63,135 nt of DNA, taken from positions 1 to 63,135 of the forward strand of contig JAZNHR010000025.1 in the NCBI GenBank assembly GCA_045577075.1. The letters run 5' to 3'. Of this stretch, positions 5,720 through 57,772 are shown piece by piece. Within the stretch, counting starts at the first letter, position 1; each line of letters starts with the position of its first letter. The notes under the pieces were generated by a model. That model was not told where the DNA came from. It made no database searches and saw only the letters and a program-made list of their open reading frames with translations. This DNA comes from Clostridia bacterium (GTDB lineage Bacteria; Bacillota; Clostridia; UMGS1883; UMGS1540). The translations under genes and the position numbers were made by a program.

Positions 5720-5767
5720 TTTATGTACCTCCTAGATATTTAAAGCAGCGCCGCTGTGGGCGCCGCC

Positions 5768-6026: not shown

Positions 6027-6449
6027 TTAGTTATTTCCGCGACGGGAAATGGTGCGGCGCGGCTCGTTGCCTCGTCTTATGGACTGCATGCGTTCATCGC
6101 TTTCGTGCTTAAACTGCAGTAGTTTATCTTCAAAACTGTCTCCGGAGGTGTCTCGCTTTTTAGACCAGTCATATTCCATAGGCTGGGTACGGCGCGGCTG
6201 CAAAGGTTTTTCCTCCATGGTGGCCTTTTTAATGGAAAGTGCAATTTTTCCACTCGGCTCAATTGTCATGATTTTCACACGAACAGTTTGTCCTTCTTTC
6301 AAAAAGTCATGAATGTCTTTTACAAAGGCTACAGCAACCTCCGAGATATGTACAAGCCCCGTTTTGCCGTCACCAAGACTTACGAATGCTCCGAAATTCG
6401 TGATTCCTTCTACACGACCTTCGACAATTTTTCCAACCTCAAGCGCCAT
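6027..6449 (-). CDS. yabR: S1 RNA-binding domain protein (YabR-like)
   Basis: N-terminal S1 fold VGKIVEGRVEGITNFGAFVSL..GLVHISEV. Position downstream of divIC matches B. subtilis. Confidence 0.85.
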   Translation of the reverse strand: MALEVGKIVEGRVEGITNFGAFVSLGDGKTGLVHISEVAVAFVKDIHDFLKEGQTVRVKIMTIEPSGKIALSIKKATMEEKPLQPRRTQPMEYDWSKKRDTSGDSFEDKLLQFKHESDERMQSIRRGNEPRRTISRRGNN

Positions 6450-6512
6450 AAATTTACCGGTCTCCCTTCGGAAAATAAAGTATAAAGGGTCTTTACCGAA
6501 ATGAGAACAACC

Positions 6513-6815
6513 CTAACGTCCCGTTACGTCTACGAAAACCGTTTCATCCGGCAGGACAAGCCCCAGCTTCTCCCGGGCGACCTTTTCGATATATGCATCG
6601 GATTTAGAGAGCCCTTCCAAGTCCTGTACCTGGGCAAGACGACCTTCCGCTTCTGCAATGTCCGCTTCCAGCTGTGAAATCTGAGAATCAGACTCGCGGA
6701 GAGAAACCTGCTGCCCAATCAGCGCGTAAGAAAGGTAAAGGACAAGCGCTACCATAAGACAGACGTGCATATTTAATTTTCTTTTTGATTTCGCTTGACT
6801 TTTTCTCTTGTTCAT
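6513..6815 (-). CDS. divIC: septum formation initiator (FtsB/DivIC family)
   Basis: 100 aa. Single TM followed by a coiled coil, with a C-terminal EKVAREKLGLV.PDE motif. Confidence 0.85.
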   Translation of the reverse strand: MNKRKSQAKSKRKLNMHVCLMVALVLYLSYALIGQQVSLRESDSQISQLEADIAEAEGRLAQVQDLEGLSKSDAYIEKVAREKLGLVLPDETVFVDVTGR

Positions 6816-6872
6816 TTCTAAAACCCCACTTTTACTTATTATAGCGTAAAAAACTAAATTTGTAAAGACTTT

Positions 6873-7370
6873 TTAATACATTTTTCGTCTTTTTTTGAAT
6901 TTTTTTATACCGCACCAAAAATGTTCCCATTTGCCATAAATTTTTCTTTTCAAACTATGAAGAATGCGGCCCCAAAAACGGAAAATCGGTCGAAGGGCGC
7001 GGCACAAGATGATAAGCGGAAATAGGAGCACGCGGAAAACAAATCGGCAGAACAAGAAAAACCCGTTGGCAAGGGCCGTGAAAAACCGCACCATATGATC
7101 CCGAAAAATAAGGTGGTAGAGAAGTGCCCCCAATAGAATACCGCAAAAAATGTACCAGCGTGGCTGGCCGTAGTTGACGCGGTACATAAAGAAAAAGGCG
7201 GCGCAGGCAAAAAAGAGCCAGAACACCATGTCCTGCACGCCCACAAAGACGGTGCTGCTTTTCACAAGCCGCCGCAGGGTGCGAAACAAATCGAAAAAAA
7301 CGCCTGTCAACGCACCGCCTATGAGGGACAGCAGGAATACGTGAAGCTCGCTTGTAACAGAAATGGCCAC
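6873..7370 (-). CDS. yabQ: spore cortex biosynthesis protein YabQ
   Basis: 165-aa multi-TM protein immediately downstream of yabP. Conserved synteny. Confidence 0.8.
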   Translation of the reverse strand: MAISVTSELHVFLLSLIGGALTGVFFDLFRTLRRLVKSSTVFVGVQDMVFWLFFACAAFFFMYRVNYGQPRWYIFCGILLGALLYHLIFRDHMVRFFTALANGFFLFCRFVFRVLLFPLIILCRALRPIFRFWGRILHSLKRKIYGKWEHFWCGIKKFKKRRKMY

Positions 7371-7926: not shown

Positions 7927-8003
7927 GGCGGTGTAGCTCAGTTGGCTAGAGCAAACGGTTCATACCCGTTAGGTCGGTGGTTCGAGCCCACTCGCCGCTA
8001 CCA
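7927..8003 (+). tRNA. tRNA-Met (CAT), elongator type
   Basis: Cloverleaf with acceptor GGCGGTG/CGCCGCT, anticodon stem AACGG/CCGTT, loop TTCATAC, T-loop GGTTCGAGCC, encoded CCA. Lacks the initiator GGG/CCC anticodon stem. A tRNA-Ile2 (lysidine) identity cannot be fully excluded. Confidence 0.9.
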
Positions 8004-8009
8004 TCATTT

Positions 8010-8084
8010 GGCCCCTTGGTCAAGCGGTTAAGACATCGCCCTTTCACGGCGGTAACACGAGTTCGATTCTCGTAGGGGTCACCA
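8010..8084 (+). tRNA. tRNA-Glu (TTC)
   Basis: GGCCCCTTGGTCAAGCGGTTAAGAC..CCCTTTCACGG..GTTCGATTC..GGGGTCACCA. Anticodon loop CTTTCAC. Confidence 0.95.
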
Positions 8085-25796: not shown

Positions 25797-25806
25797 ATAG
25801 AACATG

Positions 25807-25845
25807 AAAACGGAGTCGTGCAATGCACGGCTCCGTTTTTGTTTT
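25807..25845. terminator. bidirectional terminator between lrp and tlyA
   Basis: AAAACGGAGTCGTGC-AAT-GCACGGCTCCGTTTT with A and T flanks. Confidence 0.75.
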
Positions 25846-25854
25846 TATATTCGT

Positions 25855-26649
25855 TTATTGCGCCTCTTCATGCGCTTTGTCCACCGTTTCCCATATAGGT
25901 GCTTCAATGCTTTCGGCGTCGGATTTTGCAAGGTGGAGAAGGTACTCTATATTTCCCTTCGGGCCTTTTACGGGCGAAAAGTCAAGACCCAACACGGAAA
26001 AGCCCGTTTCCTTCGCAAAAGCAATCACGTTTCCAATAACTTCCCGATGGGTTTCCTTATCCCGTACAACGCCCCCTTTGCCGACCTTTTCTTTCCCGGC
26101 TTCAAACTGGGGCTTTATAAGGCAAACCACCTCGCCGCCTTCGCGAAGAAGCGTATGGGCGACGGGAAGGACAAGGCGAAGGGAGATAAACGAAACGTCA
26201 ATGCTGGCAAAGTCAGGATTTTCCGGCACTTCCTTTTCCGTAACATACCGAATATTGGTGCGCTCAAGATTGACAACGCGCTCGTCGGTACGCAGGCTCC
26301 AGGCAAGCTGGCCGTACCCGACGTCAATGGCATATACTTTTTTCGCGCCGTTTTGGAGCATACAGTCCGTAAAGCCGCCGGTGGAAGCACCGATATCCAT
26401 ACAAACAGCGTTTTCCAGAGAAATGGGGAAGGACACCATGGCTTTTTCAAGCTTTAACCCGCCGCGGCTGACATAGCGGAGCGTATCCGTCCGCACCTCG
26501 ACTTTGTCGCTGTCCGCAACAGGCTGGCCCGCCTTGTCTGCTTTCTGCTCATTGATATAAACGTCCCCGGCCATAATGACGGCTTTCGCCTTCTCACGGG
26601 TCGGCACAAATCCGTTTTCCGTTAAATATACGTCCAGCCTTTGTTTCAT
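25855..26649 (-). CDS. tlyA: TlyA family rRNA 2'-O-methyltransferase
   Basis: S4 domain MKQRLDVYLTENGF. SAM motif CMDIGASTGGFTDC. Confidence 0.9.
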   Translation of the reverse strand: MKQRLDVYLTENGFVPTREKAKAVIMAGDVYINEQKADKAGQPVADSDKVEVRTDTLRYVSRGGLKLEKAMVSFPISLENAVCMDIGASTGGFTDCMLQNGAKKVYAIDVGYGQLAWSLRTDERVVNLERTNIRYVTEKEVPENPDFASIDVSFISLRLVLPVAHTLLREGGEVVCLIKPQFEAGKEKVGKGGVVRDKETHREVIGNVIAFAKETGFSVLGLDFSPVKGPKGNIEYLLHLAKSDAESIEAPIWETVDKAHEEAQ

Positions 26650-28469
26650 GCTTTTACAATCCTTTCTGCGTCCGCGGCAAGACTTGCGGCGTCCAGCTTA
26701 TATAGTGCATAAAGTTCCTCTATAGTGCCTTGGGGGACAAACGTATCAGGGAATGCTTTGGTATATACGCGATACCCACCGAGTGCTGCGGCAATTTTTT
26801 CGCCGATGCCACCGGGGGCAGTATTATCTTCAATCGTAATGATGCGCCCCGTTTTTTTGACGGAAGCGGTAAGACAGGGAATATCAATGGGCTTTGCACA
26901 GCGTAGGTCAATTACCTCGGCGCTTATGCCTTTTTCCGCAAGAAGAGATGCGGCAGAAAGTGCCGTATGGGTCATGCGGCCGAGGGCGGCAATCGTCACG
27001 TCCGTACCTTCTCTAAGGATTGCCGCCTTGCCAAAGACAAAGGGCGGCGCGGAAAGGGGAGAAAGCGAGCCTCTCGGGTACCGAACGGCAATGGGGCCAT
27101 CATGATTTTCTACGGCATAGCGGAGCATTTCTTCCAAACCATTCAAATCTGCCGGCGCGAGCACCGTCATGTTCGGAATATGGGTCAGGAACGAAAGGTC
27201 AAAAATCCCCTGGTGGGTTTCGCCGTCACCGCCTACAACCCCTGCCCGGTCTACTGCCAGTACCACATGGCCGCCCGAGAGGGCAACGTCATGCACAAGA
27301 GAATCATAGGCGCGCTGGAGAAAAGAGGAATAGATAGAAAGCACAGGGAGCATACCGCCTGCAGCAAGGCCTGCGGAAAATGTGGCGGCGTGGGCTTCGG
27401 CAATGCCGGTGTCAAAAAAACGGTCAGGATATTTTTGCATAAATTCGCCAAGACCCGAAGAATCCGGCGTGGAAGGCGAAATGGCGACGAGATTTGGAAT
27501 TTTCTCCGCAAGGGACACGATGGTTTTGCCAAACCGAGTGCTACAGCTCTCTGCTGCAGATTTTTCGGGGGACACGGCGTGATAGAGGGAGGGCGTCTCC
27601 TCGGCAGGGGCATAGCCCTTCCCCTTTTTCGTTAAAACGTGCACTAAGACGGACTCAGAAAGTCGCTTTGCTTCTTCAAGGGTATCGCAAAGCTGACGAA
27701 TATTATGCCCGTCCACAGGGCCGAGATATCTACACCCAAGCTTTTCAAAGACAACGCCGGGCGTTACGCAATACCGCAAAAGTCGGCTGAGTTTCTTCAT
27801 CGCCAGCGCGGAGGGCTTTCCAAGTACGGGAATGCGGTGCAGAAATTCACTCGTTTCCCGCTTGACTGTATAGTAAGCAGAACGTGTACGGATTTTATTT
27901 AAGTACTGGGAAAATCCGCCCACGACCTGCCCGATAGACATTTGGTTATCGTTTAAAATGACAATGACCTTGTGCTTGCAATGGGCAATGTGATTCAGCG
28001 CTTCCATGGAAAGCCCCCCGGAAAACGCCGCATCGCCGATGACAGCAATCGCCTCGCCGCCTTTCTGCTTTAAATCCCGTGCCGCCGCAAAGCCGAGGGC
28101 GGCAGAAATGGAGGTAGAGGAGTGGCCGGTGTCAAAGCAGTCATATTCGCTTTCCGCTTTTTTGGGAAAGCCGGACAAACCGCCAAACTGCCGTAAAGAA
28201 GCAAACTGCTCTCTGCGGCCGGTCAAAATTTTATGTACATAGCTTTGATGTCCCACGTCCCATATGATTTTATCGTGGGGCACAGAAAAAATACGGTGCA
28301 GTGCGACCGTAAGCTCGACTACACCGAGATTCGAGGCAAAATGCCCCCCTGTTTTCGGAACATTTTCAATTAAAAAGGCTCTGATTTCGGCACAGAGCTT
28401 TTCTAATGTAGGCACGTCCATCGCCCGAAGTGCGGACGGGGACTCTACCGAAGAAAGAAGAGTTTCCAT
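26646..28469 (-). CDS. dxs: 1-deoxy-D-xylulose-5-phosphate synthase
   Basis: 607 aa. GGHFASNLG, DVGHQSY, GDAAFSGG TPP motif. Confidence 0.95.
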   Translation of the reverse strand: METLLSSVESPSALRAMDVPTLEKLCAEIRAFLIENVPKTGGHFASNLGVVELTVALHRIFSVPHDKIIWDVGHQSYVHKILTGRREQFASLRQFGGLSGFPKKAESEYDCFDTGHSSTSISAALGFAAARDLKQKGGEAIAVIGDAAFSGGLSMEALNHIAHCKHKVIVILNDNQMSIGQVVGGFSQYLNKIRTRSAYYTVKRETSEFLHRIPVLGKPSALAMKKLSRLLRYCVTPGVVFEKLGCRYLGPVDGHNIRQLCDTLEEAKRLSESVLVHVLTKKGKGYAPAEETPSLYHAVSPEKSAAESCSTRFGKTIVSLAEKIPNLVAISPSTPDSSGLGEFMQKYPDRFFDTGIAEAHAATFSAGLAAGGMLPVLSIYSSFLQRAYDSLVHDVALSGGHVVLAVDRAGVVGGDGETHQGIFDLSFLTHIPNMTVLAPADLNGLEEMLRYAVENHDGPIAVRYPRGSLSPLSAPPFVFGKAAILREGTDVTIAALGRMTHTALSAASLLAEKGISAEVIDLRCAKPIDIPCLTASVKKTGRIITIEDNTAPGGIGEKIAAALGGYRVYTKAFPDTFVPQGTIEELYALYKLDAASLAADAERIVKA

Positions 28470-28470
28470 A

Positions 28471-29073
28471 TTATTTCCTGCTTTTCTTTAGTCGGAATGA
28501 AAACAGTGCAAGAAATTTACCGATATAAAAAACAAATTGGTTGCACTGATTGATCGCAATGGTTTTCCCGAGGGCTTTGCCACCCACCGTCAGGGCGGAA
28601 ACGGTGCCCGTAACAAACAGGCTTGTAAGGAGCGAGGGGAGAGAGTAATTCGTTACAAGCTGAGAAGCGATAAAGCTACCCGTGGCACCGCTTACGATGC
28701 CGCAGATATCCCCTACAACGTCATTACAAAAGTTTGAAACCTTTTCCGCATTGCGTATAAGGCGAATGGACTCTGCCGCTCCGCGGACACGGTTTGAAGC
28801 CATGGCGTGAAACGGGGCTTCTGCCGCCGTGGTGACTGCAATGCCTAAAATATCAAATATAATACCGAGAAATACGATGGTCAGCAAAATCAAAAACGCC
28901 ACCGTCATGGCCACATTCCCAAGGAGAGAAGAGGTTACAACGGTAATGGAAACAGAAAGAAAAAAGGTTAAAAGAATCGTCGTAATAATCCAGGACACGC
29001 TTACCTTTCGGCGCAGCGTGTGACTGCTTTTTACTTTCATTTTCCTGCGTTTATGGGGCACATCCTCTTTCAC
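28471..29073 (-). CDS. oapA: small 4-TM membrane protein, OapA-like (OLE-associated protein A candidate; CNNM/DUF21-like TM fold)
   Basis: Probable GTG start at 29073, 6 nt after AAGGAAGA; alternative ATG at 29040. The upstream part of the 257-aa track ORF runs through the structured RNA and is not coding-like. Sits immediately downstream of the large ncRNA and upstream of dxs. Confidence 0.6.
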   Translation of the reverse strand: MKEDVPHKRRKMKVKSSHTLRRKVSVSWIITTILLTFFLSVSITVVTSSLLGNVAMTVAFLILLTIVFLGIIFDILGIAVTTAAEAPFHAMASNRVRGAAESIRLIRNAEKVSNFCNDVVGDICGIVSGATGSFIASQLVTNYSLPSLLTSLFVTGTVSALTVGGKALGKTIAINQCNQFVFYIGKFLALFSFRLKKSRK

Positions 29074-29094
29074 GATACGTCTTCCTTTTATAAA

Positions 29095-29706
29095 AAATTT
29101 GGTGGTAGAATACGGAGTAAATTTTGCGGCATAGGTCCGAGACGGATTTCCCACTTCCGTGCCCGCGCGTCGCCGCTCCGGGCCGTTTCCGATTAAACAG
29201 AAGCCGAGCCAGAGGCTCGATTCGGATTGCCACTTAGTCCGCACTGCAATCCTCCGTATTCCACAGGTTACTGAACAGCCTAGGAGATTTCCTCAACAGT
29301 CAAACCGACTCTTAGCCTTTTTTGCAGATAGGATTTCAAACAGCAATATCTCCGATTTGTTGGCCGACAAATCGGGGCATGAACCGTTATCCTTCATACC
29401 CACGCAAGGCAGGCTACTCTGCCCACAGCGCCAATACGGCACCGCATGGCAGGTTTACTCCTACGCCGTACTCCGCCCTGTCGCCCACAAGGGACGAGCA
29501 GAGGTAGAAGCACGTACGCAGGTCTCCACGGAAAAGGGGTCAACGCTCGCATGCCATTGCGAATCGCCCCTAAACCTTAACCCCCAGCATCGACCCCCGA
29601 CTGGGCGTCGAAAGCCAACACCAGGAACTTCATCGATATGCCCTTCTACGGATTTTTAGGCCCGTCTTGGGAACCGGCATCCTGACTAGGATACTGCACC
29701 ACCTTT
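29095..29706 (-). ncRNA. ole: large structured non-coding RNA, candidate OLE (ornate large extremophilic) RNA
   Basis: About 610 nt between its own consensus promoter and the oapA-like gene, with no credible ORF. Many perfect local hairpins, for example CCGATTTGT/ACAAATCGG at 29352-29375 and CGAGCC/GGCTCG at 29205-29219. A 5'/3' closing helix GGUGGU (29698-29703) pairs with ACCACC (29101-29106). The ncRNA-oapA-dxs-tlyA context matches the known OLE locus. Boundaries are approximate. Confidence 0.65.
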
Positions 29707-29712
29707 CCATGC

Positions 29713-29741
29713 AGTATATCATATCTTTCGCACTTTGTCAA
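29713..29741 (-). promoter_or_regulatory. consensus sigma-A promoter of the OLE-like RNA
   Basis: Minus strand: TTGACA (29741-29736), 17-nt spacer, TATACT (29718-29713). Begins 3 nt after the prmC stop. Confidence 0.75.
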
Positions 29742-29744
29742 ATT

Positions 29745-30551
29745 TTATAACGCTTTTTTTCGCCCGACAACGCATCGCGCATTGCCGCCGAGATCATATA
29801 AAATTTCGGTGTTTTCAAAGAAGGGGTCCAGTATAGCTTTGACCTGCTCCCCTTGCCTGTAGCCGATTTCAAGTCCTAGATATCCCCCGGGGGCAAGGGC
29901 GCAAAACGCTTTTTCGACAATCACGGGATAAAACAGAAGTCCATCACTGCCCCCGTCAAGGGCGGAAAAAGGCTCGAAATCGCGCACGTCCTTCGAGAGT
30001 GTAGAAATCGTATCCGTTTCAATATAGGGGGGATTGGATAGAATGAGGTCAAAGCGTGCGGGCAGCGCATCCTTTAAAATGTCCAGATGTAAAAATTCGG
30101 CCTCTACGCCGTGCCGGCGCGCATTTTTCTCACTGATTTCCAGTGCAGGCAAAGAAATGTCCGCCAAAGTCAGGGCTTTTACGGGCGTGTTTTTTGCAAT
30201 GGAAATACCAATACAGCCGCTGCCGCAGCAAAGGTCAAGCACCCGTGCGTTTTCCGCGTGCTCGATTGCCCATTCTACGAGGCGCTCCGTGTCGGGACGC
30301 GGGATGAGCGTTGATTCGTCCACATAAAACGGCAGAGAGAAAAATTCCTTTTCCCCGAGAATGTACGAAAGGGGATAGCCTGTACGCCTTTTTTCGCACA
30401 AAGCAAGAAAAGCGGCCTGCACCGCATCCGGCACAGGCTCGCTGTAAAGAAATAACAGTTTTTCACGAGGCACGCCCATACAATGGGCTAAAAGCACCTC
30501 AGCATCCAGCCGGTCAACGCCGGCAGAGGATAAAAGCTGTCTGATTACCAT
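29745..30551 (-). CDS. prmC: peptide chain release factor N5-glutamine methyltransferase
   Basis: 268 aa. LDLCCGSGCIGIS SAM motif and the NPPY motif (SNPPYI). Confidence 0.9.
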   Translation of the reverse strand: MVIRQLLSSAGVDRLDAEVLLAHCMGVPREKLLFLYSEPVPDAVQAAFLALCEKRRTGYPLSYILGEKEFFSLPFYVDESTLIPRPDTERLVEWAIEHAENARVLDLCCGSGCIGISIAKNTPVKALTLADISLPALEISEKNARRHGVEAEFLHLDILKDALPARFDLILSNPPYIETDTISTLSKDVRDFEPFSALDGGSDGLLFYPVIVEKAFCALAPGGYLGLEIGYRQGEQVKAILDPFFENTEILYDLGGNARCVVGRKKAL

Positions 30552-31465
30552 TTGTCATCCTCCGGATTCCCCGTCAGCGTTTCGGAAAGGGCGGCGATGG
30601 CACATTCGATTTGCCCGTCGTCAGGCTCAATGGTGGTAATGTGCTGGAGCCACACACCGGGGGCAGAAATGATGCGGGTGAACGCATTTTCGTGGCGGCC
30701 GGCAAATTTAATCAGCTCATAGCCGATACCGGCAACAATGGGAAGTGTTAAAAGCTTAATGCCTGTGCGGACGAGGGGATTATCGGCAGTAATAAACATG
30801 GAAATGATAATGCCCACCAGTAGCACCAAAATCATAAACGAAGTGCCGCATCTCGGGTGAAAACGGCGCATTTTTCGCACGTTCTCTACCGAAAGGGGCA
30901 GGCCTGCCTCATAGCAAAATATGGTTTTATGTTCTGCACCGTGGTACATAAAAGTGCGGCGCATATCCTTCATAAGTAGCATAGCGCACATGTAGCCTAC
31001 AAAAATGAGAATGCGAAGGCCCCCTTCAAAAATGCCACGCCAGATGCCATTGTCAAGAGAAGGCACCGCGTCCGCCAAAAGGCGAAAGAGAAGGGACGGC
31101 AGGTAAATAAACAGACCTACGGAAAGAAGCAGGGCAAACACAACGCTTGCCACCATAAAAAGGCTCATGATAAGCTTGTTCTTTTTTTCGTCCTTTTCCT
31201 CTTCTTCCTCAAGCCCTGCAATTTCTGCCGAGCGCATCAGGCACTTATACCCGTAGCGCAGGGAATCAATCATGTTAAAAATACCGCGAACGAAGGGAAG
31301 CTTAAAAAACTTTGCCCTGTTGTTTTCGGGGGTGGGCATGGTTTCAAGGACAATTTCCCCTTCCGGATTTCGTACTGCCATGGCAGTTGTTTTCGGTCCG
31401 CGCATCATAACGCCTTCTATAAGCGCCTGGCCGCCGATGCTTGTTTTATGTGTAGATGGTTTCAT
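30545..31465 (-). CDS. DUF1385 domain-containing membrane protein (YqhQ-like)
   Basis: Start at MKPSTHKTSIGGQALIEGVMMRGP (31465) after AAGGAG. GAEHKTI motif. Usual partner of prmC. Confidence 0.85.
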   Translation of the reverse strand: MKPSTHKTSIGGQALIEGVMMRGPKTTAMAVRNPEGEIVLETMPTPENNRAKFFKLPFVRGIFNMIDSLRYGYKCLMRSAEIAGLEEEEEKDEKKNKLIMSLFMVASVVFALLLSVGLFIYLPSLLFRLLADAVPSLDNGIWRGIFEGGLRILIFVGYMCAMLLMKDMRRTFMYHGAEHKTIFCYEAGLPLSVENVRKMRRFHPRCGTSFMILVLLVGIIISMFITADNPLVRTGIKLLTLPIVAGIGYELIKFAGRHENAFTRIISAPGVWLQHITTIEPDDGQIECAIAALSETLTGNPEDDKW

Positions 31466-31569
31466 ATCGTAATAACTCCTTTGTGTTTTGCATCCTTTCT
31501 TCCTTATAGTATAGCAGAAAAGAGTGTGGCGCACAAGAGATTTTTCCCGAATTTATAATTTGTTAAAAA

Positions 31570-32160: not shown

Positions 32161-33243
32161 TTACACTTTTTCCCTCTTAAGACGGCGAATGGCGGCGACA
32201 AGGAGCGTAATAAGCGGCAGGAGCATTTCAAAAACACCAAAGAGGTAGGCACCCATATTTCGAAACCAGTCAGGAAGCGTAAGGCCTGAACGGAAGAGAT
32301 ACATAGCAGAAAGAATAGCCGCGGCAGAAAGAAACAAAAGGCATATACCGCGTTTTTCAAAGGTTTTTCCCAAGGTATCCTCCGCTGCCCGAATGGTGGC
32401 ACAAAGAAGAACACTGATTTTAAAAACGCGCATGATAATTAGGGTAAAGGCAAACACGATTTCAAGACGGGAAAAAACGTTCATTAGATTGATAAGGCGA
32501 ATTGCCTCGTACGTCGGCTCCGTCAAATAGGAAAGACCAATGCCGAGGGTGGCAATGTCCCGAAGAAAGGTGACGAGAAGATACGCACTGCCAAGGAGCA
32601 GTCCCCAGAGAAAGCCTTTTTTTACGTTCGCCTTTCTGTCCGCATACGGTAATAAAATCAAAAAAACGATGATTTCGCAAAGGGGTGCGGCGGCAAGGAC
32701 GAAGGACCCTTGGGCGTATTTTTGCACGCCCAGTGTAAGAACGGGCAGAAAATTTTTAAGTTCCATGTTCGGAATGAGAAGAAGGGAATTTAAAAGGAGT
32801 GCGGAGGCCATGAAAACAAAGAATAAAAAAGCATTTCTTAGAATCACCACAATCCCCAGCTTTGCCGCGGCGGCACAGACGGCGGTGACTAAGATGAGGG
32901 TGACGAGCATAGGCGTTTCGGGCATAATAAATCCGGTAAAAAAGTCCCCGATATTTCGAAGGCTGACTGCTGTAAACCCGAGACAAAACAGGGTGTACAC
33001 CGCGTTTAAAAGCCGCCCGAGATGTTTGCCGTATACGAGGCTGTGTATCTCCAGGAGCCCATAGCCGGGGAAACGCCGGATTAGTAGGATGTAAACGCCA
33101 ATCACGGCAAGGCTTAGAAGAAGTGCTAAAAGGGCGGTAAGCCAGGAATCCTGAAAAGTAATTTGCGTTACAAAAACGGTAAAGAGAGAGGAACCGCCAA
33201 TGAAGGTGGCAATCCCGAAAAGAAGCTGACGTGTGGTAAACAT
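32161..33243 (-). CDS. spore germination protein, GerAB/GerKB (APC-superfamily permease-like) subunit
   Basis: 360 aa, 10 TM. Third gene of the ger operon. Confidence 0.85.
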   Translation of the reverse strand: MFTTRQLLFGIATFIGGSSLFTVFVTQITFQDSWLTALLALLLSLAVIGVYILLIRRFPGYGLLEIHSLVYGKHLGRLLNAVYTLFCLGFTAVSLRNIGDFFTGFIMPETPMLVTLILVTAVCAAAAKLGIVVILRNAFLFFVFMASALLLNSLLLIPNMELKNFLPVLTLGVQKYAQGSFVLAAAPLCEIIVFLILLPYADRKANVKKGFLWGLLLGSAYLLVTFLRDIATLGIGLSYLTEPTYEAIRLINLMNVFSRLEIVFAFTLIIMRVFKISVLLCATIRAAEDTLGKTFEKRGICLLFLSAAAILSAMYLFRSGLTLPDWFRNMGAYLFGVFEMLLPLITLLVAAIRRLKREKV

Positions 33244-33255
33244 ATGGTTCCTCCT

Positions 33256-34398
33256 TTATTTTACCGGCCTACCGATGCGTCCCGAGGAGTCAATTTTCGT
33301 TTTGACCTCCACCCGAACGGGCAGGTTATGAAATTCTGCATCTTGCATCGTTTCCCAGACTTTGGGGTGATAGCGGTAAAGTACGTCTGAAAATCCGAAA
33401 ATATCTGCCCGAAGCTCCTGGCTTTTTTGGAGACAGGCACGGATTTCGCCTTCAATTTCTCCGGCAAATGCTCCGAGGAGACGGTCAACACCCTCTTTTG
33501 TGGTATAATTTCCCTTACCCCGTTCGCTCCCGAGGGCACCCTCTGCCTCTGCCTCCAGTACCATGGTAACGTTTTGGTTTTCGTCCACTTCCGCGCGAAT
33601 ACCGCCTTTGGCGCGAATGACCTCAATGCCCACCTTGTCCTCGTCCATGGGCACCATGAGGACTGCCTGTTCCACTTCGTTCATCGTCCAAAGAAGGCCG
33701 CGCGTTTCACGCTCGGAAAGCTCACCAATCATCTTATCACCGTCAAAAACGGCAGTTCCCGTCATGTGGAGCACGTCCTCGCCTCCCGAGTTATCAATTT
33801 CAATAATAGGAATGAGAGGTGCGCCTTTTTCGGCGGCAAGCTTATTCATATAATCGAATACCGTCACCGTCATACCCGTAGAAAGCTGCTTTTGGGCCTG
33901 AATCAGGTCATGGATGTGCAGTGCCGGTATACTTTGAAAGCCGGCGTTTACGTCCAGTACATCTGCACCCTTGCCACGGGCTACCAGCAGATGCATGTCT
34001 AGACGCAGCTCATGGTCACGCAGGAAAAAGTCCATATAATTGCCAAGACCCTCTTCCGCCGTTTCCTGCCCGAAAATGACTACATAATTATGTGCCATGT
34101 AGAGCTTGGAGCCGGACTTTGAAACAGAGGAACGAATGGAGGGAAACACATATTCTCCCGTAGAGGAAAGATTTAAGTAGGGCTTTTGGTCACCGCCGCC
34201 GCTTTTTCCTTCGCTGGCGGCGCTTATGGTGCGCGTGTTGGCAATCTGGGCGGTAATTTCGATTTCATCTTCCTTTTCGCCTTTGTCCACAGCAAAGCCC
34301 ATCACGATTGCAATTTTGCCGATTTCCCGTCTGTTCCAGCAGCCGCAAAGGCTAAGGCACAGAAAAAAGGATAAAAGTATGGCTAGCGTTCTTTTCAT
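33256..34398 (-). CDS. Ger(x)C family spore germination lipoprotein
   Basis: ATG 34398 (MKRTLAILLSFFLCLSLCGC lipobox), 5 nt after AAAGGAG. The track TTG start at 34413 is less likely. Confidence 0.85.
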   Translation of the reverse strand: MKRTLAILLSFFLCLSLCGCWNRREIGKIAIVMGFAVDKGEKEDEIEITAQIANTRTISAASEGKSGGGDQKPYLNLSSTGEYVFPSIRSSVSKSGSKLYMAHNYVVIFGQETAEEGLGNYMDFFLRDHELRLDMHLLVARGKGADVLDVNAGFQSIPALHIHDLIQAQKQLSTGMTVTVFDYMNKLAAEKGAPLIPIIEIDNSGGEDVLHMTGTAVFDGDKMIGELSERETRGLLWTMNEVEQAVLMVPMDEDKVGIEVIRAKGGIRAEVDENQNVTMVLEAEAEGALGSERGKGNYTTKEGVDRLLGAFAGEIEGEIRACLQKSQELRADIFGFSDVLYRYHPKVWETMQDAEFHNLPVRVEVKTKIDSSGRIGRPVK

Positions 34399-34409
34399 GG
34401 CGACTCCTT

Positions 34410-35957
34410 TCAAGGTTTACTACGCCTGGGATTGCGCCGGGCGAGATTTGAAGGGCGCGTTAAAAGCCAGCGAAGGGGCAGGCGGAAAAGTGCGTCCTTG
34501 TTATCGGCAAGGTGAAAGGGAACAGCAGGGGAAAGATAGGGAATGCCAAAGGAGGACAGGGCGCCAAGGTGCAAAAGGAGAAGGAGAAGCCCCAGCGTCA
34601 GCCCCAGCCCCCCGAACACACCGGCAAGGAGCAAAAATAAAAGACGTAAAATCATGGAAGCGTTTGCCTGCGCCGGCGCGGCAAAGGCGGAAACGGCGGT
34701 GATGGCAACGGCGATGACCATGGGCGCACCGATGATGCCGGCACTAACTGCCGTTTCCCCGATGATAATGGCACCTACCATGCTCACCGCCTGCCCTGCA
34801 GGACGGGGCAGGCGAATACCGGCTTCTTTTAAAATCTCAAACACAATAATCATAATCAGCGCTTCAATGACGGCAGGGAAGGGCGTGTTGCCCTCTGCCG
34901 CCGCCATGGAAAGGAGAAGCTCCGTGGGGATAAGCTCTTGGTGAAACGTCGTCAGCGCTACATATAAAGGAAGCGCCAAAATACTAATCATAAACGCCGA
35001 GAACCGCACCATACGAAGAGCGGAGGCGAAAAGGGGCGCAATATAGTAGTCCTCCGTCGTTTGAAAATTCTCTACAAAAAAAGAGGGAGCAGTTAGAACG
35101 TAGGGAGAGCCATCCACGATAATTGCCACCCTGCCTTCGAGGAGCTTGCCTGCCACGGCGTCGGGCTTTTCGGAGCTTGCCATGGTGGAAAAGAAGGGGG
35201 AGCCGGGGTCGGCAATGTACTGCTCTATATAGCCGGAGTCTAAAATGCCGTCGGTATGAATGGTCGTGAGCCGTCGCCGCACCTCTTCCACAAGGGAGGG
35301 GTCGGCAATGTTTCGGACATAGCAAATGGTGATGTAGGTATTCGTCTTTTCGCCGACAATCATCTGCTCTAAGGTAAGAAACGGGCTTTTAATCTTGCGG
35401 CGCAAAAGGGCGGTGTTTGTCCGCATGTTTTCCACAAAGCCTTCTCTAGGTCCACGGAGAACCGATTCTGTCTGCGGCTCCTCGACGCTTCGCTGGGGAA
35501 AGCCCTTGGCGTTTATGATAATCGCGCCCGGAATACCGTCAATAAGGACGGCTGCGTCCCCGGATAAAACCCCTTGGATAAGGTCGCCGAATTTCTCAAT
35601 GGGGCGGCTTTCGCCTGCTGTCATGTATAGGCTTTGCACTTCTTCCATGGTGCGGGGACGTACTGCTTTTTCTTCGCCGACAAAGCCGTCATACATCAGC
35701 GGCTTTACAATTTCCAGCGCAACGCGGTCCGCACGAATCAGCCCGTCAACGCAAACCATGACGGCCTCCGTTCGGCTTTGCCCAAATTGAAAACGGCGCA
35801 AAATCACATCGCCGCTGCCGCCAAACATATCTTTCACCAGTTTTATATTCACAGCCAGCTTTTTTTCAATTTTCATATTTTCCCAAGGGTTGTCGTCAAT
35901 CCCGAAAGCGTCGTGTCTGGAAGAAAGTGCGTTTAAGATGGCAGCCAATTTCTTCAT
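34410..35957 (-). CDS. spore germination protein, GerAA/GerKA subunit
   Basis: 515 aa. Soluble N-terminal domain plus C-terminal TM bundle. GPREGFVE motif. Confidence 0.9.
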   Translation of the reverse strand: MKKLAAILNALSSRHDAFGIDDNPWENMKIEKKLAVNIKLVKDMFGGSGDVILRRFQFGQSRTEAVMVCVDGLIRADRVALEIVKPLMYDGFVGEEKAVRPRTMEEVQSLYMTAGESRPIEKFGDLIQGVLSGDAAVLIDGIPGAIIINAKGFPQRSVEEPQTESVLRGPREGFVENMRTNTALLRRKIKSPFLTLEQMIVGEKTNTYITICYVRNIADPSLVEEVRRRLTTIHTDGILDSGYIEQYIADPGSPFFSTMASSEKPDAVAGKLLEGRVAIIVDGSPYVLTAPSFFVENFQTTEDYYIAPLFASALRMVRFSAFMISILALPLYVALTTFHQELIPTELLLSMAAAEGNTPFPAVIEALIMIIVFEILKEAGIRLPRPAGQAVSMVGAIIIGETAVSAGIIGAPMVIAVAITAVSAFAAPAQANASMILRLLFLLLAGVFGGLGLTLGLLLLLLHLGALSSFGIPYLSPAVPFHLADNKDALFRLPLRWLLTRPSNLARRNPRRSKP

Positions 35958-36150: not shown

Positions 36151-36226
36151 GCTGGTGTAGCTCAATTGGCAGAGCAGCTGATTTGTAATCAGCAGGTTGC
36201 GGGTTCGAGTCCCATCACCAGCTCCA
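36151..36226 (+). tRNA. tRNA-Thr (TGT)
   Basis: Acceptor GCTGGTG/CACCAGC, anticodon stem GCTGA/TCAGC with loop TTTGTAA, T-loop GGTTCGAGTCC, encoded CCA. Confidence 0.95.
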
Positions 36227-36233
36227 GACATTT

Positions 36234-36318
36234 GGAGGGGTTCCCGAGTGGCCAAAGGGGGCAGACTGTAAATCTGTTGTCAGTGACTTCGGTGGTTCGA
36301 ATCCACCCCCCTCCACCA
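36234..36318 (+). tRNA. tRNA-Tyr (GTA), long variable arm
   Basis: GGAGGGGTTCCCGAGTGGCCAAAGGG..GACTGTAAATC..variable arm..GGTTCGAATCCACCCCCCTCCACCA. Confidence 0.95.
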
Positions 36319-41094: not shown

Positions 41095-41168
41095 GCGGGT
41101 ATAGCTCAATGGTAGAGTTCCAGCTTCCCAAGCTGGCTGTGCGGGTTCGATCCCCGTTACCCGCTCCA
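41095..41168 (+). tRNA. tRNA-Gly (CCC)
   Basis: GCGGGTATAGCTCAATGGTAGAGT..GCTTCCCAAGC..GGTTCGATCCCCGTTACCCGCTCCA. Starts one nucleotide after the sigH stop. Confidence 0.95.
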
Positions 41169-47632: not shown

Positions 47633-47660
47633 AAAAGGGACAGTTTACTGTCCCTTTTTT
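47633..47660. terminator. bidirectional terminator between araC-like gene and rnpB
   Basis: AAAAGGGACAG-TTTA-CTGTCCCTTTT. Confidence 0.8.
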
Positions 47661-47664
47661 ATAT

Positions 47665-47996
47665 GAGCAAGCCTGTAAGCCGAGTTCTGTCAAAAGCAAT
47701 CATCTATCTACGCCGCACATCGCTATGCGGCTTTAGCCACCAGTCGAAGAAGCGCCGGGCCGGCTTATCTCTTCTGTCGGTGTTGCACCGAGTGGGGTTT
47801 ATACGGCCGGTATGTCGCCATACCGCCGGTGAGCTCTTACCTCGCCTTTCCATCCTTACCACAAAAAGTGGCGGTTGTTTTCTGTTACACTATCCTTAGA
47901 GTCGCCTCCACCAGACGTTATCTGGCACCCTTGCCCTATGGTGCTCGGACTTTCCTCACCAAAGCGAACGCTTTGCCGCGATTGCCCAGCTTACTC
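47665..47996 (-). ncRNA. rnpB: RNase P RNA
   Basis: Minus strand contains the universal P4 elements GAGGAAAGTCCGAGC and ACAGAACTCGGCTTACAG. P1 helix GAGTAAGC/GCTTGCTC defines the ends. The plus-strand track ORFs here are spurious. Confidence 0.9.
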
Positions 47997-48048
47997 ATAT
48001 GGATAGTATAACACAGGAAAGAGAGCGTTGTCAACGGTTTTCTGTCTT

Positions 48049-48762
48049 CTATTGGTGCATGAGCTGCCGGAGCCTTGTAATTGCCCGCTTTTCAGCTCTG
48101 GAAACCTGCACTTGGGAAAGACCAAGCAGTTTTGCGGTTTCGCTTTGTGTTTTATCCCTGAAATAGCGGCATAAAATCACGTTCTTTTCTGTTTCGTTGC
48201 CGGTATCCAGAAGCCGCAAAAGGGTAACGCGATCTGCTGCCTTTTCGGCGATGTCCTCGCCCTCGGCAAGCACGTCCCCAAGCTGTCCCTCGCCGTCCCC
48301 GATCGGTCGCTGGAGGGAGTCCGGGATTTGTACCGCTTCCATTGCCGCCGCAATTTCTTCCATGGGGACGCCAAGTGCTTCGGAAACAGCGGAAAGCGGC
48401 ACATCACCACCGGCTTTTTCAGAAAGGGTGCGGGCTGTGCTGGCGGCTTTTACGGCAAGCTCCCGTACGCTTCGGCTGACCTTTATGATGCCGCTGTCCC
48501 GAAGGTGCCGGCGTACCTCGCCCATGATCATAGGAACAGCATACGTGGACAGGGCAAGTCCTCGGGATAAATCAAACGCACGGACAGCTTTGATAAATCC
48601 AATTGCCCCAAGCTGAAAAAGGTCCTCGTCTTCTGTGCCTCTGCCACGAAAACGGGAGACCACGCTCCGAATCAGTGGCGCATTGTCTTTCGTGAGCGTT
48701 TCGAGCGCTGCTTCGTCACCGCTTTGTGCGGCACGAATCGCCTCGTATGTACCGTTATCCAT
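48049..48762 (-). CDS. sigF: RNA polymerase sporulation sigma factor SigF
   Basis: 237 aa sigma-70 group 3. Third gene after spoIIAA-spoIIAB. Confidence 0.9.
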
Positions 48763-49174
48763 GGATTCTTTTTGTCATTACAACGCGTGTTCCCTCGTCG
48801 AGCCGGGAGGAGACGGCGAGGCTGTCCATAAAGCTTTCCATCACGGTAAAGCCCATGCCGCTTCTCTCCAGATGCGGCTTTGAAGTATAGAGGGGGCGCA
48901 TCGCCTTTTCTACGTCCGCAATCCCTCTGCCCTTATCGCGGATGATAAAGGTCAAAAGAGAGCCCTTACATTCCATTTCCAGGCAGACCTTGCCACTTCT
49001 GCCCTCATAGCCGTGAATAATGGCATTGGTTACGGCTTCGCTCACGGCGGTTTTAATGTCGGCGAGCTCTTCCACCGTGGGGTCCAGCTGGGCGGCAAAA
49101 GCCGCCGCCGCAACCCGCGCAAACCCCTCGTTTACCGATTTTGCTTCTAAAATAATTTTCACCTTGTTTTCCAT
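48755..49174 (-). CDS. spoIIAB: anti-sigma F factor (serine kinase) SpoIIAB
   Basis: 139 aa. Motifs [14 protein letters not shown] and RSGMGFTVM. Confidence 0.92.
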
Positions 49175-49185
49175 CGTTTTCCTCC

Positions 49186-49521
49186 TTAAAGTCCGGCCGC
49201 GGCGGCGCTGACTGTTTCATACACGGGAATGATTTTATAAATCCCTGCAAGGGAAAGGAGCTTATCCGCCTCTTTTGACGGAGCTGCAATGCGCGTCGTG
49301 CCCCCAAGGGCGGCAATCATTTTATACCGTCCGATTAAAATACCAAGCCCGGAACTATCCATAAAGCGAAGCTGGGAAAGGTCGAAAATCAGATTCCGCA
49401 TGCCTGCGGCACTTATGCGGCTTTCAAGCTCTTCACGTACATAGGAAGCGTTGTGATGGTCCAGCTCTCCGCGAAGCGTTGCCACCAGCGCTCTCCCCGT
49501 AGTTTTACATACGACTTCCAT
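49186..49521 (-). CDS. spoIIAA: anti-sigma F factor antagonist SpoIIAA (STAS)
   Basis: ATG 49521 ([23 protein letters not shown]) after AGGAGG. Phosphorylatable DSSGLG motif. Confidence 0.9.
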
Positions 49522-49566
49522 AAATAGCCCTCCTAAATCTGGAAATTTTTTACAGATAAATGGAGT

Positions 49567-49619
49567 ATTCGCCCTCAAAAATAAAAATCCTTCCGCAAAA
49601 AAACACTACCTTTGTCGAA
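49567..49619 (-). promoter_or_regulatory. sigma-H-type promoter with upstream Spo0A box for the spoIIA operon
   Basis: Minus strand: AGGATTT (49591-49585), 13-nt spacer, CGAAT (49571-49567). 0A box TGTCGAA on the plus strand at 49613-49619. Confidence 0.55.
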
Positions 49620-52885: not shown

Positions 52886-54220
52886 CTAAATATGTAGAAT
52901 CATTTTTGCCACGGTAAAATAAAGCGCAAGAGCGCAGATGTCCACGATAGTGGTAATAATGGGGGAGGCCATAATGGCAGGGTCAAGCCCCAGCTTTTTT
53001 GCGCCGATAGGGAGAAGACAGCCGACAGATTTTGCAATAATTACTGTTGCCAATAAACTGATGCCGACTACAAGGCCGAGGGCAAAATTATGGTCATAGA
53101 AAAGATAGATGCGAAGGAGACTAACGAGAGCGAGAACGATGCCGCATAAAACGGCAATGCGAATCTCACGCCACCAGACTCTAAGGGCATCTCGCCCTTC
53201 GATTTCGCCAAGGGAAAGACCGCGGATAATAAGGGTTGAAGCCTGCGACCCACAGTTACCGCCCGTATTCATCAGCATGGGCATAAACGATACTAAAATG
53301 GGCATAACGGCGAAAGAATCCTGAAATTTCGTTAAGATTGAACCGGCGAAAATGGACGACAGCATCAGGAGCACCAGCCAAAGCACGCGGCGCTTTGCGT
53401 GGGCAAAAACGCCGGTTTTGAGGTACGGCGCTTCCGAAGGGGTCATAGCCGCCATAAGTTCAAAGTCCTCGGTGTTTTCCTGCTGCAAAACCTCCACGGC
53501 ATCGTCAATAGTGATGATGCCAACAAGCCGCCGTTCCCGGTCTACAACGGGCAGGGACAAAAAGTCATATTTCTGGAAAAGGTTTGCGATGGTTTCTCTG
53601 TCCTCGTCCGTGGAAACATAGATGACGTTTGTATCCATTATATCGCCGACAAGGGCATCCGTGTGCGCCAGAAGTAAATCCTTGGCAGTAACAATCCCCT
53701 CGAGTTTCCTGTTTTCATCCATGACGTAGCAGGTATAAATTGTTTCTTTATCCGGGCCGGTGCGGCGAATGGTGTCAAATGCCGCCCCCACGGTCATTTC
53801 CTTTTTCAGACCCACAAACTCAATGGTCATAAGACTCCCTGCGGAGTCATCCTCATACTTCAGAAAGCGGTTTATAAGTGCGCGTTTTTGCCCGGTGGTA
53901 TTTGCAAGCACACGCTTTACAACGTTTGCCGGCATTTCCTCAATAAAGTCAACGGCGTCATCGAGGAAAAGCTCGTCAATAATGCCGGAAAGCTCACGGT
54001 CCGTAATGCTTTCCACAATATGCATCTGCGTATCCGTTTCCATATAGCTGAAAACGTCCGCTGCCATACCTTTCGGGAGAAGTCGGAACACCCTTACGCA
54101 GTCTTCGTCCTCCAGCTCGTCAAAAAGCTCTGCCACGTCAACAATGTTCGCTTCCTCCAAAATAGAGCGAATTTTCATGTATTGCCGTGTTCTTAAAAGT
54201 TCTACAATGTTTTCAAACAT
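52886..54220 (-). CDS. mgtE: magnesium transporter MgtE
   Basis: 444 aa. N domain, tandem CBS domains, and TM domain with the GNCGSQ motif. Confidence 0.95.
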   Translation of the reverse strand: MFENIVELLRTRQYMKIRSILEEANIVDVAELFDELEDEDCVRVFRLLPKGMAADVFSYMETDTQMHIVESITDRELSGIIDELFLDDAVDFIEEMPANVVKRVLANTTGQKRALINRFLKYEDDSAGSLMTIEFVGLKKEMTVGAAFDTIRRTGPDKETIYTCYVMDENRKLEGIVTAKDLLLAHTDALVGDIMDTNVIYVSTDEDRETIANLFQKYDFLSLPVVDRERRLVGIITIDDAVEVLQQENTEDFELMAAMTPSEAPYLKTGVFAHAKRRVLWLVLLMLSSIFAGSILTKFQDSFAVMPILVSFMPMLMNTGGNCGSQASTLIIRGLSLGEIEGRDALRVWWREIRIAVLCGIVLALVSLLRIYLFYDHNFALGLVVGISLLATVIIAKSVGCLLPIGAKKLGLDPAIMASPIITTIVDICALALYFTVAKMILHI

Positions 54221-56711: not shown

Positions 56712-56826
56712 AAAAGTCCTCTCTCGTAAACAGAAAAAGGGCTGACCACAATGCACTGACCACGTAAAGCATTTTGCTTTGCGCCTTTCTCGCCTTGTGA
56801 TGCAGCCCTTTATATATCTGTATTTT

Positions 56827-57771
56827 TTAGGCGTTCTTCTTTGCGATGGTTTCCAGTGCCTTTTCGGCGATGTTTTCAGCCGTCAGGCCGTACATCTTAA
56901 GAAGGGGAGCAGGCTTGCCGCTCTTGCCGAACTTATCCATGATACCGACGCGTGTGAGGGGTGTGGGTGCGTTTTCGGAAAGAACTTCTGCAACTGCACT
57001 GCCGAGACCGCCAATGATGTTGTGTTCTTCTGCGGTTACAACTGCACCCGTCTTCTTTGCACTCTTTGCAATCAGCTCTGCATCGATGGGCTTTATGGTG
57101 TGAATGTTGATAACTTCTGCAGAAACACCCTTTTCAGCCAGAATTTTGCCAGCTTCAATGGCTTCCTGTACCATAAGACCTGTTGCGATAATCGTAACGT
57201 CCGTACCTTCCGAAAGCACAATACCCTTGCCGAGCTCAAACTTGTAGTCAGCGGGGTCAAAAATCTGGGGAACGGAGAGACGGCCGAAACGGAGATAGAA
57301 GGGACCATCATTTTCGATTGCTGCCTGTACGGCTGCACGGGATTCCGTAGCATCCGCGGGGCTAATAACTGTCATGCCGGGCAGGGCACGCATTAAGGCA
57401 ATGTCTTCGATTGCCTGGTGCGTAGGACCGTCTTCACCAACGGAAATACCGGCATGGGTTGCGCCGATTTTTACGTTGAGCTTCGGGTAGCAAACTGCGT
57501 TACGAATCTGTTCAAAGGCTCTGCCGGATGCAAACACGGCAAAGGAACTTGCGAAAACCGTTTTGCCTGCGGCTGCGAGGCCTGCGGCAGTTGTCATCAT
57601 ATTCGCTTCTGCAATACCCATATTGAAAAAGCGTTCCGGAAATACCTTTTTAAAGGAATCGGTTTTGGTGGACTTGGAAAGGTCAGCATCCAAAACTACA
57701 AAATCATGTTTTGCGCCAAATTCGGCCAGCGCTTCACCGTATGCTTCTCTTGTCGCTTTTTTATCAGCCAT
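56827..57771 (-). CDS. transketolase, C-terminal (pyrimidine-binding) subunit
   Basis: 314 aa. YGEAL, FFNMGIAEANM. Confidence 0.92.
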   Translation of the reverse strand: MADKKATREAYGEALAEFGAKHDFVVLDADLSKSTKTDSFKKVFPERFFNMGIAEANMMTTAAGLAAAGKTVFASSFAVFASGRAFEQIRNAVCYPKLNVKIGATHAGISVGEDGPTHQAIEDIALMRALPGMTVISPADATESRAAVQAAIENDGPFYLRFGRLSVPQIFDPADYKFELGKGIVLSEGTDVTIIATGLMVQEAIEAGKILAEKGVSAEVINIHTIKPIDAELIAKSAKKTGAVVTAEEHNIIGGLGSAVAEVLSENAPTPLTRVGIMDKFGKSGKPAPLLKMYGLTAENIAEKALETIAKKNA

Positions 57772-57772
57772 T

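Follow-up and report, generated by a model that had tools for sequence, protein, structure and literature searches.

What does the long minus-strand gap between prmC and the gene for a small membrane protein encode in a 63,135-nucleotide (nt) contig from an uncultured Clostridia bacterium (JAZNHR010000025.1, positions 1–63,135; this whole stretch of DNA is hereafter the window)? A first-pass annotation, made from the DNA letters, had proposed that the gap holds a candidate OLE RNA and that oapA, dxs and tlyA follow it. An Rfam 15 scan covering the whole 63-kb window returned a match to the OLE family (RF01071) at 29086–29718 on the minus strand, with a score of 485.7 bits against a gathering threshold (GA) of 50 and E = 1.9e-139; the covariance model was covered from position 1 to 616 of 616 and the match was not truncated. 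The matched span exceeds the RNA proper because the model takes in flanking bases. The proposed dimensions needed small adjustments: the gap, put at 700 nt, measures 671 nt between the stop codon of prmC and the GTG of oapA, and the RNA, put at about 610 nt, is predicted to run for ~606 nt from its start to the end of the closing helix P1. On the evidence set out below, the window almost certainly carries a complete, intact and ordinary OLE RNA gene. It is assigned to the full-length type of RF01071 because P7, P8, the long P9 and the GGCGAC-loop hairpin bound by OapB are all kept. OLE is an already-known and well-studied RNA family, long represented in Rfam and with ~2,800 copies on record from Bacillota (PMC11332333); a default Rfam scan suffices to recover this one, and as a discovery the locus carries little weight.

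The assignment was examined against a survey of at least 120 OLE loci, which were drawn from a one-genome-per-species collection via a conserved 5′ motif and in which nhmmer confirmed the presence of OLE in 120 of 120 cases. Aligning the window RNA with 45 survey loci and folding the resulting 46 OLE RNAs with RNAalifold yielded a consensus structure of 147 pairs, 98 of which show compensatory double changes. Covariance-model score and covariation both uphold the proposed identity. The window RNA forms 140 of the consensus pairs (95.2%; the median of the set is 94.2%), and it agrees at 190 of 191 highly conserved columns, defined as those at least 95% identical in a set of 43 OLE RNAs that belong to other lineages. 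Both results suit the family, which is characterised by some 25 paired elements and by about 25% of its nucleotides being almost invariant. The closest relatives among the loci collected are two, L108 and L044, with OLE RNAs 88–95% identical to that of the window, and four syntenic metagenome contigs, L121–L124, which were reached through the OapA of a relative (P0003) and stand higher still by nhmmer score; 140–142 of the 147 consensus pairs are formed in close relatives.

Could the same DNA encode protein instead? Two open reading frames (ORFs) invite the question, namely a 166-residue frame on the plus strand (29159–29659) that overlaps the RNA region and a 257-residue extended form of the downstream gene (28471–29244, minus strand), to which a call in the public protein collection (P0001) is identical. 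Neither frame is sustained in relatives whose OLE is 88–95% identical: a run of 174 antisense codons, the longest without a stop in the window RNA, shrinks to 69–122 codons there, and no sense frame is kept open among them, in agreement with the first-pass view that the region lacks a codon-like ORF. Homologues of the downstream protein have 200–203 residues, and their starts line up with the GTG at 29073. Since no frame is conserved and substitutions track base pairing, as the compensatory changes demonstrate, we exclude a coding function, to which we assign a practically negligible probability.

The helix that closes the molecule had been proposed from the complementarity of GGUGGU near the predicted 5′ end and ACCACC just ahead of the downstream gene. 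Taken alone, one 6-mer complement some 600 nt away could be a chance match. We surveyed P1 pairing, RNA length and terminators over 87 OLE loci and found the P1 core pairing, GUGGU with (A or G)CCAC, intact in 97–100% of them. The first pair outward of this core is standard in 98% (GC in 54, AU in 27, GU in 3 and UA in 1), and the second and third in 83% and 71%; when the P1 3′ strand was shifted as a control, the pair adjoining the core on its outer side was standard in at most 66% of loci. The helix thus covaries, is recovered by RNAalifold, and is the known P1 stem, to the start of which the 5′ ends of the OLE RNA of Halalkalibacterium (Bacillus) halodurans C-125 map (Wallace et al. 2012, PMC3413148). 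From P1 to P1 the window RNA measures 601 nt, compared with a range of 535–653 nt and a median of 577 nt over the 87 loci.

Both local hairpins that the first-pass annotation had picked out are likewise helices of the OLE consensus. The 9-base-pair (bp) hairpin at 29352–29375 pairs CCGATTTGT (29375–29367) with ACAAATCGG (29360–29352) across the loop CGGCCA and forms P9.3, the tip of the P9 arm. Its loop holds the self-complementary tetranucleotide GGCC at 29365–29362; a palindrome occurs at the P9.3 tip in 46 of 46 aligned OLE RNAs, with a GGCC core in most. Within alignment columns 426–446 the loop reads GGCC, GGGCCC, GAGCUC, GCGC, GGUACC, UCGCGA, GUAC or others depending on lineage. Judged from the alignment, this covariation fits the kind expected of a homodimer kissing loop. 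In the OLE dimer resolved by cryogenic electron microscopy (cryo-EM), an L9.3 kissing loop bridges the two RNAs and the L4 loop makes an A-A bridge (PMC12286853); by its sequence the window RNA possesses both predicted dimerisation motifs, the A-rich L4 (GCCUAAAAAU) and the self-complementary L9.3. The second hairpin, of 6 bp, joins CGAGCC (29219–29214) to GGCTCG (29210–29205) across the loop TCT in the 3′ domain, which also contains the GGCGAC-loop hairpin, the counterpart in the window of the P13 region that OapB binds (PMC12265935).

Upstream of P1, the minus-strand promoter described in the first-pass annotation is present, with the −35 hexamer TTGACA at 29741–29736, a 17-nt spacer and the −10 hexamer TATACT at 29718–29713; a TG at 29721–29720 adds an extended −10 element. 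Transcription is predicted to start at ~29706–29707, 3–4 nt ahead of P1. Promoter matches were scored in the 60 nt upstream of P1 at 121 OLE loci, with 2420 shuffled 60-nt upstream segments as the control, and a match as good as that of the window (at least 11 of 12 positions) arose in 4 of the 2420. A promoter of its own had been listed among the peculiarities of this locus, and here the earlier reading does not hold, for a proximal promoter is the norm: 94 of the 121 loci reach 9/12 or better against the sigma-70 consensus (78%, versus 16% of shuffled segments) and 74 reach 10/12 or better (61%, versus 2.6%), most of the 121 loci carry a TG before the −10 box, and the B. halodurans OLE gene has an active proximal promoter of its own, with expression up more than 100-fold (Wallace et al. 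2012, PMC3413148). L108 keeps the identical TTGACA-17-TATACT promoter beside OLE despite an insertion of 1.6 kb upstream of it. That insertion (~1.6 kb between prmC and the ole promoter, L108 positions 4040–5720) encodes a 104-residue XRE-type helix-turn-helix regulator on the ole strand and small membrane-like ORFs on the strand opposite to ole.

On the downstream side, no terminator was found between ole and oapA, so that one transcript can reach oapA, and the oapA ribosome-binding site (AAAGGAAG, 29088–29081) lies merely 13 nt past the end of P1, with the start codon 27 nt after P1. This arrangement raises the question of whether the RNA is a long structured 5′ leader, a riboswitch or attenuator acting in cis on oapA-dxs-tlyA, and no free-standing RNA at all. 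We regard such a role as very unlikely because at 8 of 87 other loci OLE has a conserved terminator hairpin of its own behind it, which makes it a separate unit there, and because the B. halodurans RNA is a single, discrete and very stable species whose level shifts independently of the oapA mRNA (PMC3413148). The match to the entire 616-position OLE model also speaks against a leader, as does the lack of any Rfam cis-regulatory family at gathering score here.

The hairpin at those eight loci (L020, L022, L023, L053, L070, L076, L088 and L111) looks like a dedicated terminator: it lies 7–12 nt past the P1 3′ strand, takes the form (A)GCUGAUAG-N5-7-CUAUCAGC with a U run behind it, and has an unusually conserved stem. 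The hosts include Alkaliphilus, Caloranaerobacter, Tissierellaceae, Anaerosalibacter and Clostridium thermobutyricum; the window is without any counterpart of this post-P1 hairpin. The earliest terminator found on the ole strand, in a scan that left out the dxs coding region, follows tlyA and separates it from a convergent gene for an AsnC-type regulator. From these elements the predicted organisation of the unit is P(ole)-ole-oapA-dxs-tlyA-terminator.

Is the protein encoded directly after the RNA OapA? Of 98 surveyed loci, 95 have a homologue of it directly after OLE and in the same orientation (36–86% identity by tblastn). The 200-residue protein has thousands of homologues, the closest listed being 200–203 residues long and some of them named CorB or DUF21. 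Against the Pfam CNNM family (PF01595) it scores 20.1 bits over residues 62–193, below the cut-off of 28.4, and no further Pfam domain was found in it, hence no CBS or CorC domain. OapA is characterised as a protein of about 21 kDa that has four transmembrane helices and clustered basic residues; the N-terminus of the window protein is basic (HKRRKMKVKSSHTLRRK). Because the protein is homologous to the gene product after OLE elsewhere, and because the weak CNNM/DUF21 relationship published for OapA (PMC11332333) is seen here as well, its sequence identifies it as OapA. The longest ORF of the gene is that of the 257-residue call (28471–29244), and a relative has a similar 256-residue call in the public collection (P0016). 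As most homologues have 200–203 residues, the GTG at 29073 is taken as the true start. The public annotation is thereby corrected: the 257-residue call runs 171 nt into the RNA, and the true OapA comprises 200 residues.

The genes beyond oapA confirm that the downstream synteny proposed for the locus (structured RNA, small transmembrane protein, dxs, tlyA) is kept, as judged by OapA homology and by the TIGR00204 and TIGR00478 matches of the next two products. The first of these, Dxs, is 1-deoxy-D-xylulose-5-phosphate synthase. Dxs and TlyA both succeed OapA in 46 of the 55 loci with enough downstream flank. The whole cluster, with ispA and xseA/xseB before OLE and dxs and tlyA behind it, is frequent in the family without defining it. 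Upstream, among the 101 loci whose flank reaches 1.2 kb or more, ispA lies directly before OLE in 85, xseA adjoins it in 3, prmC does so in 1 (L108), and the remaining 12 have other neighbours (RecG, an HslU-like ATPase, DUF819 or a POR subunit). The replacement of xseA-xseB-ispA by DUF1385-prmC, which had been presented as distinguishing this locus, is real, but it is lineage-specific and one of several alternatives to ispA; among the loci listed, the DUF1385-prmC context occurs only in the closest relatives L108, L044 and L121–L124, the last four of which have the entire gerA-to-ftsW gene order in common with the window. The change of upstream neighbour is the window's only departure from the usual OLE locus and is paralleled in other lineages. 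The locus thus adds a further lineage that has lost the linkage of ispA to ole but kept ole-oapA-dxs-tlyA together with the proximal promoter, in support of the view that the unit has a conserved core made up of promoter, ole and oapA.

Two contigs in the survey carry names from outside the Bacillota. An OLE locus beside nusB-xseA-ispA in a metagenome-assembled genome (MAG) labelled 'Deltaproteobacteria bacterium' (L045) and one beside RecG in an 'uncultured Bacteroides sp.' MAG (L114) are both Bacillota-like, and these contigs are probably mis-binned, which agrees with the remarks of Fernando and Breaker (2024) on the few non-Bacillota OLE hits. The coordinates of the features in the window are collected in Table 1.

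Table 1. Positions of the OLE RNA, its structural elements and the genes of its locus in the window.
Feature	Position	Strand	Remarks
ole promoter, proximal, sigma-70 type	29713–29741	−	11/12 consensus match plus TG
OLE RNA, full-length type (predicted)	29101–29706	−	~606 nt, predicted 5′ end to P1 3′ strand
P1 5′ strand, GGUGGU	29698–29703	−	covariation of flanking pairs; RNAalifold
P1 3′ strand, ACCACC	29101–29106	−	covariation of flanking pairs; RNAalifold
P2 5′ strand (GCAG...CCUAG)	29697–29686	−	partner 29283–29275
P3 5′ strand	29684–29671	−	partner 29311–29297
P4 hairpin, A-rich loop GCCUAAAAAU	29647–29666	−	covariance model and RNAalifold
P9 arm	29316–29409	−	tip P9.3 is the 9-bp hairpin 29375–29352
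3′ domain ('domain 2', P10–P15)	29108–29261	−	holds the 6-bp hairpin and the GGCGAC-loop hairpin
oapA, 200-residue membrane protein	28471–29073	−	GTG start at 29073; directly after OLE
dxs	26646–28469	−	TIGR00204, 691.8 bits; starts 1 nt after the oapA stop
tlyA, rRNA 2′-O-methyltransferase	25855–26649	−	TIGR00478, 279.2 bits; 4-nt overlap with the end of dxs
Predicted intrinsic terminator, bidirectional	25804–25842	both	18-pair stem, U runs on both strands
prmC	29745–30551	−	upstream context, outside the OLE unit
DUF1385	30545–31534	−	upstream context, outside the OLE unit

The detachment of ole-oapA-dxs-tlyA from xseA-xseB-ispA leaves prmC next to the RNA, and the prmC junction might itself be functional, ole being co-transcribed with prmC, which encodes the release-factor methyltransferase. 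The prmC stop codon occupies 29747–29745, the ole −35 hexamer begins 3 nt beyond it, and no terminator was found between prmC and the ole promoter. We consider a functional junction improbable; if true, it would extend the emerging links between OLE and the translation apparatus (bS21, with uS7 and uS11 as candidate partners).

The host can be placed by the company that the RNA keeps. The nearest OLE loci among those listed carry the name 'MAG: Clostridia bacterium', and the window encodes SpoIIAA-SpoIIAB-sigma, GerA/GerB/GerC, YabQ and rubrerythrin. By its gene content the host is predicted to form spores, which agrees with the correlation of OLE with sporulation genes that has been reported; OLE hosts are anaerobic or extremophilic Bacillota, many of them spore-forming. 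The spoIIAA-spoIIAB-sigma factor operon lies at 48049–49578 on the minus strand, a gerA-type germination operon (GerA, GerC and a spore permease) at 32161–35957 on the same strand, and the genes for YabQ, DivIC and an S1-domain protein at 6027–7370. Full-length OLE thus persists in non-extremophile, probably gut-associated, spore-forming Clostridia.

How far do the OLE systems studied elsewhere apply to this locus? The B. halodurans RNA belongs to the same Rfam family and has the same architecture as that of the window; in both, oapA directly follows OLE and is itself followed by dxs and tlyA, and in both a promoter stands just before P1 with read-through from upstream possible. The two differ in that other Bacillaceae loci surveyed, such as L014, have xseA-xseB-ispA upstream in place of DUF1385-prmC, and in that the window comes from an uncultured anaerobic Clostridia bacterium known from sequence only, as opposed to an alkaliphilic Bacillus. 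A closer view of the fold is provided by the OLE RNAs of Clostridium acetobutylicum and C. botulinum, solved as homodimers by cryo-EM (Kretsch et al. 2025, Wang et al. 2025), which share with the window the A-rich L4, the P5/P6 loops GCCCA and AAUGGCAU, and the GGCC loop of P9.3 (PMC12286853). The window RNA is slightly longer than the Clostridium RNA (~606 nt versus 577 nt), the excess lying in its extended P7 and P8 arms; one hairpin of its 3′ domain is shortened. Its identity to OLE RNAs of the genus Clostridium falls within 61–72%, the range for all lineages beyond the closest relatives. The reduced 'variant 1' (TANB77) and 'variant 2' (RF39) OLE RNAs of gut MAGs also come from uncultured, host-associated, Clostridia-type bacteria (Fernando and Breaker 2024); the window RNA departs from them in keeping P7, P8, the long P9 and the GGCGAC loop (PMC11332333). 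Among proteins, the MpfA/CorB/CNNM (DUF21) transporters are the relevant comparison. The window OapA has a sub-threshold CNNM match and relatives named CorB or DUF21, and with 200 residues and neither CBS nor CorC it stands outside the MpfA family proper.

Taken together, a model for the locus can be drawn by analogy. The near-consensus promoter would start transcription 3–4 nt before P1, and the resulting ~606-nt RNA would fold such that P1 closes the molecule and P2 and P3 lead into the P4–P9 domain, followed by P10–P15. Transcription would pass uninterrupted from the RNA to oapA. The frames of oapA, dxs and tlyA abut or overlap and may be read from the same transcript. If it behaves as its B. 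halodurans and Clostridium homologues do, the OLE RNA would accumulate as a stable and abundant transcript and might dimerise via the A-rich L4, L5–L7 contacts and the GGCC kissing loop of L9.3. In other species OapA binds near P2 and P4a of OLE (PMC9723947; PMC12265935); similar binding here would hold the RNA at the membrane. Cells of those species that lose the complex become sensitive to cold, to poor carbon sources, to Mg2+ and to alcohols (PMC3413148, PMC12265935, PMC12286853, PMC9723947), which suggests that the OLE-OapA complex of the window may help its host to withstand stresses of this kind, with short-chain compounds as the alcohols concerned and Mg2+ in excess. The mechanism we favour is that proposed by the Breaker laboratory, in which OapA would be the core of a CNNM-type divalent-cation transporter and the OLE RNA would supply the sensing or regulatory role that CBS and CorC domains play in the all-protein MpfA.

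Several observations weigh against this interpretation of the locus as an ordinary, functioning OLE unit. Within the RNA, the hairpin at 29219–29205, which immediately precedes the OapB-binding hairpin, is reduced in length and without the GGUGAC loop usually seen there, and a neighbouring G, otherwise invariant in the 43 OLE RNAs of other lineages, is A at 29222, the sole deviation among the 191 conserved columns (the equivalent position is A in L108 too and U in L044). In OapA, a crude Kyte-Doolittle scan finds three strong transmembrane segments, not four. The customary upstream genes xseA, xseB and ispA are missing from the 63-kb window, where tblastn with queries from the canonical Bacillaceae locus L014 found none of ispA, xseA, xseB, nusB and folD. 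B. halodurans has OapA, OapB and OapC, whereas neither an OapB nor an OapC gene was found among the ~50 window ORFs scanned with Pfam; oapB and oapC normally lie elsewhere in the genome, and the literature leads one to expect OapB and OapC in about half of OLE hosts, with MpfA copies few or absent. Any function beyond sequence and structure would be carried over from other species, and even in the model species the biochemical mechanism of OLE is still an unproven proposal.

The broken upstream synteny, the shortened hairpin and the altered base could alternatively mark a decaying, non-functional OLE remnant left after rearrangement of the locus, and rare defective ole genes are indeed described in the literature (PMC11332333). 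We give this explanation hardly any credence because consensus pairs, conserved bases, promoter and adjacent oapA are all intact. Some 95% of the pairs and 190 of the 191 conserved columns are preserved; the published defective copies occur without OapA (PMC11332333), whereas here an intact oapA is adjacent; and the near-consensus promoter is kept in relatives. The RNAs of L108 and L044 have stayed 88–95% identical to that of the window, with pairing in close relatives as complete as noted above, and the shortened hairpin is common to the closest relatives and to some Christensenella-type loci, that is, to other lineages as well. An intact OLE RNA gene remains our reading of the locus.

A few further features of the window touch on these subjects. 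No MpfA-type protein was found among the ~50 ORFs scanned with Pfam; an MgtE transporter is encoded at 52886–54220. The S1-domain protein at 6030–6449 was considered as a candidate for OapB and rejected: its gene has divIC and yabQ as neighbours, and no OapB chain turned up when its sequence was searched against the PDB, the matches being S1, PNPase and YugI-type chains. The divIC and yabQ neighbours form what we take to be the arrangement of B. subtilis yabR, and the protein looks like YabR. A minus-strand region at 56839–57780 resembles the C-terminal half of Dxs/transketolase, with 34% identity to Dxs residues 302–606, and is probably a split transketolase subunit; a plus-strand ORF across it (56779–57396) has no Pfam match and is probably spurious. 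The Rfam scan also located a full-length class A RNase P RNA (RF00010, 274.7 bits) at 47660–47997 on the minus strand and five tRNA genes on the plus strand, at 7927–8000, 8010–8081, 36151–36223, 36234–36315 and 41095–41165.

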